From: Escherichia phage SRT7
Direction: 5' to 3' (one strand)
Sequence record: NC_048002.1
DNA length: 39,883 nucleotides
Below are positions 31,361 to 39,883 of the stretch, piece by piece (position 1 is the first letter of the stretch; every line of letters starts with the position of its first letter). The position numbers were made by a program, and so were the translations under genes. The notes beneath the pieces are model-generated. The model saw only the letters and a list, made by a program, of their open reading frames with translations, was not told where the DNA came from and did no database searches.

Positions 31361-32422
31361 TTACATCTTCACCGTTGGGTCACTTTCAGTCCCTCGCCAG
31401 CAATCCCAGCTAGGGTGACGGAGCGAGCCATCTTCGGTGTATTCCATGAACTTTACTTGGCATTGCCAGCCCTCGTAGGGGTTCATGTACCAGCATCCAG
31501 CTTCGTTAGCGTTACACTCAGTGGTGTACTCCTTAACGCGCTTCGTGAACTCGTCCATCAAATCCTGAGAGATGTTATTAGCGTCAACCGTGACACCGTT
31601 CTCAAGTTGTACTTGGAAGCCGATAACCTTACCTTCGTTAGCGAGACCCGGAGTGCCCCAATTGAGACCAACAACTACGCCATCGGCTTCGTCTTCTGGC
31701 TTCATCTTCCACCAGCCAGTTTTCTTACCGCGACGATAAGTCCCTGTTGGGTCCTTAATGATGAGACCCTCATGGCCCTCTGCACGTTTCTCTGCGTAGA
31801 GTTCGTTCAGGGACTGCATGTCATACACATCGTAGGTCTCAGCGAGTTCCCAAGAGACTTCAGGGAAGTGGTCACGCAGCACCATAATCATCTGCTGACA
31901 GTGGACCTGCATTAAGCAGTTCATCACGTCGATATCTTCACCAGACTCAACTTTGTCGAGCGGCAGGATAGCATAGAGGCGAACGCACAGGTGCTCAACG
32001 GAGAGGTTGAATGGTTGCTTGTTCTTAGACTTCCACACATCGTGGAACACACGGTGCTCGGTGAACTCAAAGTTGTTCAGCTTGAGCCACTTGGTACGCA
32101 GCAATCCAGAGCCCTTCTGGAACGACACACCTTTGACCATCAGTTCACCATCAAGCATGAACCCTTCCGGGTAAATCCAGCGGTCATCCTTCAGGAGCTT
32201 CTCCCAGCGACGGTCGTAACCGTTCAGGTGCTCCAGTGCAGGGATGGTCTTCGCTACACGGGACAGCCACAGGCCACGAGCGTCATCGGCTACCACAATG
32301 TTACCACGAACGCCATCATACTTAACGTCAGCAATAAGTGAACCGTTCTTCTCAAGAGCTTTCTCTACGGCAGACTGGACGAAACTTACAGCTTTATATG
32401 GGTTGGTTTTAATAGATGTCAT
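31361..32422 (-). CDS. gp1.3: ATP-dependent DNA ligase (T7 gp1.3-like)
   Basis: Start at ATG 32422 (MTSIKTNPYKAVSF..., 353 aa) overlapping gp1.2 stop; KYDGVRG adenylation motif; matches T7 ligase. Confidence 0.93.
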   Translation of the reverse strand: MTSIKTNPYKAVSFVQSAVEKALEKNGSLIADVKYDGVRGNIVVADDARGLWLSRVAKTIPALEHLNGYDRRWEKLLKDDRWIYPEGFMLDGELMVKGVSFQKGSGLLRTKWLKLNNFEFTEHRVFHDVWKSKNKQPFNLSVEHLCVRLYAILPLDKVESGEDIDVMNCLMQVHCQQMIMVLRDHFPEVSWELAETYDVYDMQSLNELYAEKRAEGHEGLIIKDPTGTYRRGKKTGWWKMKPEDEADGVVVGLNWGTPGLANEGKVIGFQVQLENGVTVDANNISQDLMDEFTKRVKEYTTECNANEAGCWYMNPYEGWQCQVKFMEYTEDGSLRHPSWDCWRGTESDPTVKM

Positions 32423-32643
32423 TGTTTGATTTCCTTCATGAATTGTGGGTTGTATTGCTCGATGATTTTCCATGCGTATAACTTAGCGGTAGTCTCGCCA
32501 TCTTTCGCATAAGGTTGTTCGAGACGTCCAAGCTCAAGGCCGAACGCATCACAAATAACTGTAACGTGCAACATCCGGCAATCGTCATAGTACATGATCA
32601 TTTCCAGACCAGTGAACCAGAGTGCATCTTTCAGGCTAACCAT
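32419..32643 (-). CDS. gp1.2: gp1.2-like protein (dGTPase inhibitor family)
   Basis: 74 aa; position and YYDDC motif resemble T7 gp1.2 (IYDDW). Confidence 0.6.
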   Translation of the reverse strand: MVSLKDALWFTGLEMIMYYDDCRMLHVTVICDAFGLELGRLEQPYAKDGETTAKLYAWKIIEQYNPQFMKEIKQ

Positions 32644-37247: not shown

Positions 37248-37604
37248 TTAGAATGTTACAGATTCGTGGATTGTGCGGGTTACAGTGATGCCACCGGCAA
37301 GCTCTACAGCGTAGCGAATAGCCTCCTCTTTGGTGCGGAAGTCCCGTCCAGATACATGATAGGTGTCACCATTAACCACGTTATCAGGCTTACGGGCTAC
37401 GCTCACGGCATTAGATAGACTAAGCACTCCGTTGCGGTAATCCGTCACCCACTTATTGAGGCTCGGGACGGACACGCCAAGCTCAACAGCCAAACTTGTA
37501 GTTCCTGTCTTCCCGCGAGGGCCATCCGGTAGTGCAAGGTAACGCTGTACGGCTGCAATGCGGAAACCTACGGTGTACATAATGCGAGTATTGATGGTAG
37601 TCAT
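37248..37604 (-). CDS. Hypothetical helix-turn-helix protein (118 aa), early region
   Basis: GGAGA RBS; segment FRIAAVQRYL...GTTSLAVELGVSVPSLNKWVTDY resembles IS3 OrfA / HTH_Tnp_1-type DNA-binding motifs. Confidence 0.7.
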   Translation of the reverse strand: MTTINTRIMYTVGFRIAAVQRYLALPDGPRGKTGTTSLAVELGVSVPSLNKWVTDYRNGVLSLSNAVSVARKPDNVVNGDTYHVSGRDFRTKEEAIRYAVELAGGITVTRTIHESVTF

Positions 37605-37625: not shown

Positions 37626-37823
37626 TTAGTGAGTTGCTACGTAAAACATCCCGACCTTATTGGCCTTAAAGCGCCCATTCGGTTCCCGTACAGTGAATCG
37701 CGGCAGGACGTACCATTTGAAGTACGCTAGGTTCGCGCTGTGTACAATGAGACCCTTACGGAAGTCTCGCACAAAGAGAGCCACAATGGCTGCGTACACT
37801 GCTATGATGAAAGCTATAGTCAT
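37626..37823 (-). CDS. Small membrane protein (65 aa), early region
   Basis: N-terminal hydrophobic helix TIAFIIAVYAAIVALFV; GGAGACC RBS. Confidence 0.65.
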   Translation of the reverse strand: MTIAFIIAVYAAIVALFVRDFRKGLIVHSANLAYFKWYVLPRFTVREPNGRFKANKVGMFYVATH

Positions 37824-37846
37824 TCGCTAGGTCTCCATTAGGTTAT

Positions 37847-37886
37847 CTTTGAGCGCCCACCTGTGACGCTCTCGTTAGCCTATCAG
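37847..37886 (-). promoter_or_regulatory. RNase III-type processing hairpin (R0.5-like)
   Basis: Minus RNA CTGATAGG...GAGCGUCAC..GGGCGCUC; same CTGATAGG stop-containing motif as the other three copies. Confidence 0.45.
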
Positions 37887-38005
37887 TAACCACCTGTGAG
37901 TTTAACAGTAAGTGTCTCGGTGTCTGCCTCGAACTGAGCGCCACGCTTCAGTAGGTCGTAACAAACATCCATAAACCACTCGTAATCGTGACAACGTATA
38001 ATCAC
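37883..38005 (-). CDS. Small early protein (40 aa, GTG start), speculative
   Basis: GGGAGG 7 nt upstream of GTG; GTGA overlap with upstream ORF; stop sits in conserved CTGATAGG motif. Confidence 0.35.
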   Translation of the reverse strand: MIIRCHDYEWFMDVCYDLLKRGAQFEADTETLTVKLTGGY

Positions 38006-38154
38006 TCTACAACCTCCCATACAACCGTCCCACTAGGTAAGCGCTTGCCGAATCCTTGTTGGTTCCTGAAGCGTGCACGAGCGTCCCTTTCGTTGTACCC
38101 GTAGCATGTCATTGAGTAACACCAGCCCGGAACGTGGATAGAGTAGCGTTTCAT
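38002..38154 (-). CDS. Small early protein (50 aa)
   Basis: ATG overlaps upstream stop (ATGA); MKRYSIHVPGWCYSMTCYGYNERDARARF... Confidence 0.5.
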   Translation of the reverse strand: MKRYSIHVPGWCYSMTCYGYNERDARARFRNQQGFGKRLPSGTVVWEVVE

Positions 38155-38312
38155 TTGAATAGCCCCTCACGTTTATCATAATCGCGCTTGTTAGCGTCAT
38201 GCCATGCCTTAAGTTTAGCCATAGTTTCATCATGTGAGCGGTCGCCCAGTTGGTACAAGAGGCGATACATGACCATGATACTTTGAGAGATACCATAAGT
38301 TGGCTTGTTCAT
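38151..38312 (-). CDS. Small early protein (53 aa)
   Basis: ATG directly after SAMase stop (TAAATG) with GGGAGG RBS 8 nt upstream. Confidence 0.6.
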   Translation of the reverse strand: MNKPTYGISQSIMVMYRLLYQLGDRSHDETMAKLKAWHDANKRDYDKREGLFK

Positions 38313-38765
38313 TTAGATTACCTCCCAGATACGCCCTTCAGCGTCCATTGTGTAGCACTCACCCTCAGGTGCATCCACTTGCTGGAAGGAGCCATTCAGT
38401 CGAGTCGCCTTGTACCCCTCCAGACCCTTACAGAACAGTAGACCAGCGGTGTGAGTCTGTGACTTATAAACCATCACACAGTCTTGCTCAAAGTCATTAC
38501 AGGCCAAACGTGCCACGTTGATAGCTTGCGCCTTGTTGTCACACAATACACGATAGGTGCGCTCGGTGGTAGCGACCTCCTGACCCTCTTCACGATAGCA
38601 GCCAGTCAGACCAGTACACTCAAGGACACCGTAATATTCCGGCTCAGCCTGTAAGAGCGCCTTAAGGTCCAGTTGACGTGCCATGTTGACCATATCGGAC
38701 AGGTTAGCACGTGCAGCGGAGACCAGTACATAGAATTTGTTAGCTGGTTCGTTCGTGTAAATCAT
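38313..38765 (-). CDS. gp0.3: S-adenosyl-L-methionine hydrolase/lyase (T3 gp0.3-like SAMase, anti-restriction)
   Basis: 150 aa; EPAN.FYVLVSA...DLTGCYRE...KAQA.NVARLACN..EQDC..VYKSQTHTAGL matches recalled T3 SAMase; first gene after early promoters. Confidence 0.85.
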   Translation of the reverse strand: MIYTNEPANKFYVLVSAARANLSDMVNMARQLDLKALLQAEPEYYGVLECTGLTGCYREEGQEVATTERTYRVLCDNKAQAINVARLACNDFEQDCVMVYKSQTHTAGLLFCKGLEGYKATRLNGSFQQVDAPEGECYTMDAEGRIWEVI

Positions 38766-38990
38766 GATGTTTCTCCATAGGTTAGATTAGTGATTATCAT
38801 AATGGGACACTGGACGCTCATCTTGAGCCCGTCTCGCGGTAGTCTGTTACAGTGCCCATGAGTTAATCGCTATTGTCGCTATCGTTCTCATGAGTGTTGA
38901 TTATCCAAATTGTTAAAGAACATTCGGTTCATCCAGAGGGAATCACCTAGACCCTTTCAGTGTCGGTCATCACGTTGCTTGTTGGACACT

Positions 38991-39019
38991 AAGTTACTAC
39001 GCTAAGTACACATTGTCAA
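38991..39019 (-). promoter_or_regulatory. Candidate host sigma70 early promoter (A3-like)
   Basis: Minus TTGACA-17nt-TAACTT; near-duplicate of the promoter at 39153-39181. Confidence 0.5.
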
Positions 39020-39066
39020 GCTATTTGTTCACTTAGCGTAGCACCTTAAGTATCGTGCTAATCGTT

Positions 39067-39091
39067 CACCTCAGGTATTCGCGCTGAGGCA
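39067..39091 (-). promoter_or_regulatory. Stable hairpin in early leader (possible processing site)
   Basis: Plus cacctcag-gtattcgcg-ctgaggca; 8-bp stem on minus RNA including two GU pairs; followed by CATGTAG..TATCAG resembling the RNase III motif family. Confidence 0.35.
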
Positions 39092-39152
39092 CCGCATAGA
39101 CCATGTAGTTTATCAGTTCGGTCTCGCTGTACTGCTGTGTTGCTTGCTATCT

Positions 39153-39181
39153 AAGTTACTGCGTTTCGTTCTGCATGTCAA
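39153..39181 (-). promoter_or_regulatory. Candidate host sigma70 early promoter (A2-like)
   Basis: Minus TTGACA-17nt-TAACTT. Confidence 0.5.
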
Positions 39182-39305
39182 CACTTTATTTCGTTAGGTG
39201 GCTCTGCGTAGTTCCTTAGGCGTTCTATCGTGTGGACTCGAACCCGTCAACCTATCAGACCACTTAGAGACGCTATCGCAGCGTGTCGTCGTGTTGATGG
39301 ATGCT

Positions 39306-39334
39306 ATTAAGCCATAGACCGATGAGGATGTCAA
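39306..39334 (-). promoter_or_regulatory. Candidate host sigma70 early promoter (A1-like)
   Basis: Minus TTGACA-17nt-CTTAAT; spacing to A2/A3 candidates (~150 bp) mirrors T7 A1-A3. Confidence 0.4.
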
Positions 39335-39384
39335 CACTTAATGATAAACTTTATGAAATACTTTAAGTATGGGCTTATAGGTTA

Positions 39385-39406
39385 GCTCCTTATAGTGTGG
39401 GTTAAT
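39385..39406 (-). promoter_or_regulatory. Phage RNAP promoter (phiOL-like; AAGGAGC initiating variant)
   Basis: Minus ATTAACCCACACTATAAGGAGC, ~300 bp inside the left terminal repeat. Confidence 0.7.
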
Positions 39407-39708
39407 AGGCCGTGATAATAGCTATTGACTCTTTGGTCTCTTTAAGTTACCTTATAAGCGTACCACAGATAGACCGCTCTTTAACAATCTGACCAGTAGC
39501 ACCAGCATCACAGCAAAGATGCGACCAATAAGCCCTGAGAGCCTAGCTAATCACCTCTCTGATAAACTGATAGCAAACCATAAGCCATGAGACTGACGGT
39601 CTCTGATAAGCGTCACAGCGCTACTGAGAGTAAACCAAAGGATGGGCACCGACCAAAGGTGATGACCTGAGGTGACATTGAGTGATGACCTTATGATGTC
39701 CAACAGAT

Positions 39709-39883
39709 AGGGACTGAGGCATAACCAAATGTCACCAAAGGTCTCCCAAATGTCACCAAATGTCTCACCGCACCACCTCAGGAGAACCAAAGGTGAACTG
39801 AAAGAGGAACCAAAGGGGAAAGGGACACCAAAGGTGAACTGAAAGAGGCCTATGGGGGAACTTTGGGAGTTGTATCTTTGAGA
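39709..39883. repeat. Direct terminal repeat, 175 bp, identical to 1-175 (phage left-end copy)
   Basis: Exact match to the first 175 nt of the window. Confidence 0.95.

Follow-up and report, generated by a model that had tools for sequence, protein, structure and literature searches.

A T3-type SAM lyase gene in the ocr slot of Escherichia phage SRT7

Introduction

Phages T3 and T7 carry unrelated anti-restriction proteins in the same first early position, and the left end of the genome of Escherichia phage SRT7 (NC_048002.1) raises the question of which of the two kinds this phage encodes, how much of the known functional machinery its product retains, and which host defences it would be expected to counter. 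T3-type SAM lyases in the ocr slot have been textbook matter since the 1960s-70s; work of 2021-2023 then solved their structure and dual mechanism. The syntenic alternation between the SAMase and Ocr has been described in reviews (PMC12707154). An initial annotation, made from the letters alone, had proposed that positions 38313-38765 hold a SAMase-type gene in place of an Ocr-type gene. Here we examined this locus, its upstream signals and its neighbours. The SAM lyase in the first early slot of SRT7 is well known and already annotated, and the exact protein is deposited; our search of the literature on SRT7, Foetvirus and P1723 found no title or abstract concerning the SAM lyase gene.

Results

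The locus is the first gene of a complete T7-like genome

The window, by which we mean the whole 39,883-nt stretch of DNA that was analysed, has exact direct repeats as its first and last 175 bases. A search with a phage-RNA-polymerase promoter 20-mer (consensus TTAACCCACACTATAGGGAG, at most three mismatches to this one 20-mer) returned 12 matches, all on the minus strand, where 0.01 would be expected by chance. The protein encoded at 38313-38765 is identical to one on record (AXC34611.1 / YP_009804641.1) from Escherichia phage SRT7, which is classed in Autographiviridae, Studiervirinae, genus Foetvirus. Because of the end repeats, the 12 minus-strand phage promoters and the identical SRT7 protein, the window is a T7-like phage genome, linear and complete, and is written as the reverse complement of the customary T7 orientation. 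The repeat copy at 39709-39883 marks the left end in T7 orientation, so that the SAM lyase gene is the first from that end; it starts at nucleotide 1119 in this orientation, downstream of a promoter cluster. At 39650-39850, in and beside the terminal repeat, short direct repeats of the type ACCAAAGGTGA / CCAAATGTCACC (plus strand) are densely packed, and they resemble the short repeat arrays near the ends of T7-like genomes.

39709-39883, no strand assigned: terminal repeat, left-end copy in T7 orientation, 175 bp, exact; the other copy is at 1-175
38773-38776, minus strand: Shine-Dalgarno GGAG, 7 nt upstream of the SAM lyase ATG, read from the sequence
38313-38765, minus strand: SAM lyase gene (gene 0.3 homologue), 150-aa open reading frame, stop codon included

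The open reading frame runs on the minus strand from an ATG at 38765-38763 to a TAA at 38315-38313, and the limits given by the initial annotation are exact, with the stop codon included.

The 150-aa protein is a homologue of T3 gp0.3

In Pfam, the only family that the 150-aa protein matched significantly was PF23780 (S-AdoMet_lyase), with E = 2.2e-40 and 138.1 bits where the gathering cut-off is 28 bits, over profile positions 1-132 of 133. Its PHROGs match was phrog_2226 (E = 3.8e-47), and in a search of all PDB sequences the only real match was the T3 SAM lyase in its complexes with MetK (7OCK/8BB1; E = 3.3e-55, residues 1-149). By tblastn, the protein matched T3 genome positions 901-1353, which are gene 0.3, with 60.9% identity and E = 3e-54, and in a global alignment with T3 gp0.3 (152 aa; PF23780) 92 of 150 residues were identical (61%), with a single two-residue gap near the C-terminus. 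Since the Pfam, PHROGs, PDB, tblastn and global alignment matches all agree, the homology to the T3 SAM lyase is real and far beyond chance; the identification as a SAMase-type gene is thereby borne out, including in the direct comparison with T3 gp0.3 that had been proposed as a check.

The labels attached to this family in databases are at odds with one another. GenBank names the exact protein "S-adenosyl-L-methionine hydrolase", while phrog_2226, the RefSeq entry YP_009804641.1 and the T3 RefSeq entry all carry "SAM-dependent methyltransferase". Were the latter label taken at face value, the protein would transfer methyl groups, a reading to which we attach practically no weight: no methyltransferase family of Pfam was matched, only S-AdoMet_lyase scored above the cut-off, and the T3 homologue has been shown by biochemistry and structure to cleave SAM without methyl transfer (PMC7877911, PMC8406200). 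We therefore rejected it and regard the label as a propagated misnomer. Both names, methyltransferase in RefSeq and PHROGs and hydrolase in GenBank, are historical misnomers, the characterised activity being that of a lyase. T3 SAMase and its distant relatives convert SAM to 5'-methylthioadenosine (MTA) and homoserine lactone (Guo et al., PMC7877911).

A 90% protein cluster around the SRT7 SAM lyase has 109 members, many of them from phage contigs, and includes proteins of Shigella phages SFPH2 and SFP21A/B and of Enterobacter phages EV136_1 and IME278. One 160-aa member is attributed to Mesorhizobium ciceri; it lies on a 936-bp contig and is probably phage contamination of the assembly.

The T3-type SAM lyase fold is a nine-stranded β-barrel with two outer helices. 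Prediction by AlphaFold2 from the single SRT7 sequence gave a mean pLDDT of 39, so the fold assignment rests on the 61% identity to the solved T3 chain, which implies the T3-type fold for the SRT7 protein as well.

Catalytic residues are conserved and the gene is under strong purifying selection

Three residues have been linked to the activity of the T3 enzyme. E68 matters for activity whereas the adjacent E67 does not (Guo et al., PMC7877911); E68Q and Q94A each lower in vitro activity five-fold, the double variant E68Q/Q94A is inactive, and D95A, for which no in vitro assay was reported, has reduced anti-BREX activity (Andriianov et al., bioRxiv 10.1101/2023.02.27.530186). E68, Q94 and D95 are the same in SRT7 as in T3. 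In an alignment of 12 family members taken from phage records, with 32-97% identity to the SRT7 protein, these three residues are invariant together with N9 and G55. The stretches that diverge most from T3 gp0.3 are residues 29-45 and 60-67, and at functional sites the two proteins differ only by F3Y and K5N in the MetK-binding tail and by E67T.

The SAM lyases of environmental phages Svi3-3 and Orf1 (PDB 6ZMG and related entries) catalyse the same conversion of SAM to MTA and homoserine lactone as the T3-type family, with equivalent key Glu and Gln-Asp/Glu substrate-binding residues (PMC7877911). T3 E68, Q94 and D95 are the equivalents of Svi3-3 E69, Q104 and E105 (PMC7877911). When a sequence profile of the T3-type family was run on the PDB, Svi3-3 was not among the matches, and these equivalences consequently rest on the published structure-guided alignment. 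From the spacing, we infer that G55 and Y57 correspond to Svi3-3 G56 and Y58; position 57 is Y in SRT7 and Y or F across the 12-member alignment.

Measured on the SAM lyase gene, dN/dS was 0.051 in comparison with Escherichia phage P1723 and 0.094 in comparison with Enterobacter phage NJ2, values that show strong purifying selection. It is very improbable that the gene has decayed into an inactive remnant that plays no part in counter-defence: the reading frame is full length, the Shine-Dalgarno sequence is intact, the catalytic and binding residues are kept, and the 90% cluster counts 109 members. We rejected this reading on the conserved residues in the 12-member alignment and the dN/dS of 0.05-0.09.

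Most MetK contacts of the T3 enzyme are retained

A second action of T3 gp0.3 is on MetK, the SAM synthetase of the host, which it binds and inhibits; the binding in turn stabilises the lyase (PMC8406200). The T3 residues that touch MetK are M1, I2, F3, T4, K5, A8 and N9 in the N-terminal tail and Q103, T104 and T106, and T4, N9, Q103, T104 and H105 are strictly conserved in homologues of at least 30% identity (bioRxiv 10.1101/2023.02.27.530186). SRT7 has the T3 residue at M1, I2, T4, A8, N9, Q103, T104, H105 and T106. In our 12-member alignment, T4, A8, Q103, T104 and H105 are at least 90% conserved.

The two tail substitutions bear on the main rival to a dual mechanism, namely that the SRT7 protein is an active SAM lyase that neither binds nor inhibits MetK and acts in counter-defence by SAM cleavage alone. 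Of the seven contact residues in the N-terminal tail, two are not those of T3 (F3Y, K5N), the T3 triple mutant I2A/T4S/K5S lost MetK binding, and the more distant SAM lyases Svi3-3 and Orf1 are without the MetK-binding residues (bioRxiv 10.1101/2023.02.27.530186). However, the strictly conserved and individually tested contacts T4, N9, Q103, T104 and H105 are all present, and Y at position 3 and N at position 5 are the majority residues of the 12-member alignment, so that the substitutions are the commonest state in the family. In addition, the host of SRT7 is E. coli, and it is the E. coli K-12 MetK that T3 SAMase binds (PMC8406200). Because the validated contacts are kept and Y3 and N5 are the commonest in the family, we consider cleavage without MetK binding unlikely, and favour a SRT7 protein that, like T3 gp0.3, both cleaves SAM and binds MetK.

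No Ocr counterpart was found in the genome

A tblastn search with T7 Ocr against the whole window gave chance-level matches only, the best (E = 0.063) lying inside a 370-aa open reading frame at 31361-32473, outside the early region. The Pfam Ocr family matched none of the six downstream early open reading frames scanned. Among open reading frames of at least 50 aa in the genome, none had a net acidity above 0.11, compared with 0.24 for Ocr. Because there is neither an Ocr match nor a comparably acidic open reading frame, "SAMase in place of Ocr", as the initial annotation put it, is an accurate description: the SAM lyase holds the slot of T7 ocr, and Ocr was absent by tblastn, Pfam and the acidity scan.

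T7 Ocr (gp0.3) shares its position and its timing, as the first early gene, with the SRT7 SAM lyase, but the two are unrelated in sequence. They also differ in charge, the SRT7 protein having a pI of 4.73 with 21 D+E and 14 K+R and Ocr a pI of 4.05 with 34 D+E and 6 K+R. In outline, the literature (PMC12707154, PMC11317158) gives Ocr the same targets as the SAM lyase, type I restriction-modification and BREX. Whereas Ocr is a DNA mimic that binds the enzymes, the SRT7 protein would remove their cofactor. The phage collection that we searched has 509 records with a SAM lyase homologue and 572 with an Ocr homologue, which makes either choice a common one.

Upstream signals follow the T3 and T7 order

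In T3, the left end carries, in this order, the terminal repeat, phiOL, A1, A2, A3, the RNase III site R0.3 and gene 0.3, an order shared by SRT7; the left end of T7 is arranged likewise, except that its last element is ocr. The corresponding SRT7 features upstream of the gene are as follows.

39386-39405, minus strand: phage-RNA-polymerase promoter at the phiOL position, TTAACCCACACTATAAGGAG, one of the 12 matches to the 20-mer
39306-39334, minus strand: candidate host promoter 'A1', TTGACA, 17 nt, CTTAAT, from pattern and position, with an upstream aagtgTTGAC context like that of T3 A1
39153-39181, minus strand: candidate host promoter 'A2', TTGACA, 17 nt, TAACTT, from pattern and position, conserved in P1723
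38991-39019, minus strand: candidate host sigma-70 promoter 'A3', TTGACA, 17 nt, TAACTT, from pattern and position
38802-38859, minus strand: branched hairpin in the 5' leader, candidate RNase III site like T3 R0.3, from fold and position

The phiOL promoter is annotated just upstream of A1 in both T3 and T7, and A1-A3 stand at the equivalent place in these phages. By direct pattern search, the leftmost 1200 nt contain only three TTGAC[AT] hexamers, at 39334, 39181 and 39019, which are those of the three candidates. A strict sigma-70 consensus and terminator scan of 37800-39883 returned no minus-strand promoter; it missed 'A3' because the -10 box matches at only three of six positions. As the -10 boxes are weak, the three remain candidate host promoters, assigned from pattern, position and the comparison with T3 and T7.

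The leader hairpin spans 58 nt, folds at -21.8 kcal/mol (z = -2.3; equalled by 5 of 200 shuffles) and ends 36 nt before the SAM lyase ATG, while the annotated R0.3 stem-loop of T3 ends 25 nt before its ATG. Its position suggests an RNase III processing site like R0.3. One stem pair is G-C in SRT7 and U-G in P1723, with both sides changed, which lends the structure slight support. When the whole 231-nt leader was folded it showed no significant structure (z = -0.73), and only the 58-nt sub-hairpin beat shuffles. Neither Rfam, at its gathering thresholds, nor ARAGORN gave any match in the whole window.

Two further elements were noticed in the leader. The -35 TTGACA of the host-type promoter closest to gene 0.3 is enclosed by a 23-nt imperfect palindrome, with arms at 38990-39012 and 39026-39048 (minus strand; 83% complementary). 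Transcripts starting at the two promoters further upstream would contain it, and its RNA folds at -26.1 kcal/mol (z = -4.6), with 0 of 200 shuffles as good. Possible roles for the palindrome at 38990-39048 are those of an operator or of an element for RNA processing or attenuation; P1723 has the identical sequence, which therefore carries no covariation information. A tRNA T-arm-like motif, GGGTTCGAGTCC (39235-39250, minus strand), lies between 'A1' and 'A2'; ARAGORN found no tRNA anywhere in the window.

Comparison with P1723 and T3 across the early region

Among the records of the phage collection, the one closest to SRT7 is that of Escherichia phage P1723, with 96.5-98% DNA identity; P1723 was isolated on E. 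coli K-12. Its SAM lyase has 96.7% protein identity to that of SRT7, from which it differs by five substitutions (M25I, A29G, E63A, V64E and T66S), and the two phages share their gene order up to and including the gp0.7 kinase and the RNA polymerase. Over its first 25 kb, the window is 98.2% identical to P1723. At the SAM lyase gene (38316-38765 against P1723 3923-4372), 34 of 450 nt differ, which corresponds to 92.4% identity and a dS of 0.34. The early region is either more diverged from P1723 than the first 25 kb or has been exchanged. Upstream of A2 the leaders of the two phages are unrelated, and the SRT7 leader is a mosaic, since P1723 does not share the stretch from 'A1' to 'A2'.

In T3, an in-frame internal start is annotated within the gene (gene 0.3B, M28; T3 position 982) and is preceded by GAGGTG. 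SRT7 keeps M28 (codon 28, 38682-38684) and adds M25, but there is no Shine-Dalgarno sequence there, so a shorter product of the 0.3B type is probably not made in SRT7. The downstream border of the gene differs as well: in T3 the RNase III site R0.5 comes right after gene 0.3, whereas in SRT7 the next open reading frame abuts the stop codon.

38151-38312, minus strand: next early gene, 53 aa, gp0.35-like, phrog_5058 with E = 1.6e-7, 'putative gp0.35' in P1723

The ATG of the gp0.35-like gene joins the SAM lyase stop codon directly (TAA-ATG), and its GGAGG lies inside the end of gene 0.3. Three small open reading frames, a 118-aa open reading frame, the gp0.7 kinase (phrog_2828, E = 1e-100) and the RNA polymerase, placed by the P1723 annotation, come next in this order. 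Two of the early open reading frames, at 38002-38154 (50 aa) and 37883-38020 (45 aa) on the minus strand, overlap by 19 nt; the PHROG families that they match, phrog_13225 (7e-31) and phrog_33188 (1e-11) respectively, are of unknown function, and both reading frames are without annotation in the closest relative P1723. The 118-aa open reading frame (37248-37604, minus strand) lies between a gp0.6-like gene and the gp0.7 kinase. No PHROG family matched it, its one helix-turn-helix match was weak (HTH_Tnp_1, E = 0.01), and its label in P1723 is 'F-box domain-containing'.

Discussion

We consider it highly probable that the gene at 38313-38765 is the orthologue of T3 gene 0.3, an early SAM lyase that serves SRT7 as its anti-restriction and anti-BREX protein. 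The enzymatic activity, the binding of MetK and the range of defence systems defeated are ascribed to it here by analogy with the work on T3. There, the counter-defence by SAMase covers type I restriction-modification and BREX; type I restriction needs SAM for cleavage, and BREX has been shown to be SAM-dependent (bioRxiv 10.1101/2023.02.27.530186; PMC12707154). A counter-defence by SAM depletion against these two systems in SRT7 would fit what T3 shows. This supports the prediction of the initial annotation, which named SAM-dependent restriction and possibly further SAM-dependent host systems, BREX being one of the latter.

The course of events that we propose is the following. After entry of the DNA, host RNA polymerase would transcribe from the three leftmost host-type promoters, and the leader would probably be processed at the R0.3-like hairpin. 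The 150-aa SAM lyase would then be the first protein translated. By homology with T3 gp0.3, it would cleave SAM to 5'-methylthioadenosine and homoserine lactone, while its N-terminal tail and β4-β5 loop would bind and inhibit the host MetK. Together, SAM cleavage and MetK inhibition may lead to collapse of the SAM pool. With SAM lost, the type I restriction enzymes and BREX, which require it, would be powerless on unmodified phage DNA.

The SRT7 protein is 39% different from T3 gp0.3 and carries F3Y and K5N, and it is conceivable, if quite improbable, that this diverged gp0.3 acts on other partners or substrates, for example SAM-AMP, or that the 23-nt palindrome at the -35 nearest the gene controls its expression. 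SAM-AMP, the second messenger of CorA-type type III CRISPR, is degradable by a SAM-lyase-like enzyme (PMC10600005). If SAM-AMP or a wider range of partners were indeed involved, the protein would be a broader anti-defence enzyme.

For the family as a whole, the analysis flags the labels 'SAM-dependent methyltransferase' and 'hydrolase' as wrong for these lyases. For SRT7 itself, the T3-type counter-defence proposed here predicts that the phage would plate well on hosts equipped with type I restriction-modification and BREX, which bears on its host range and on choices in phage therapy.
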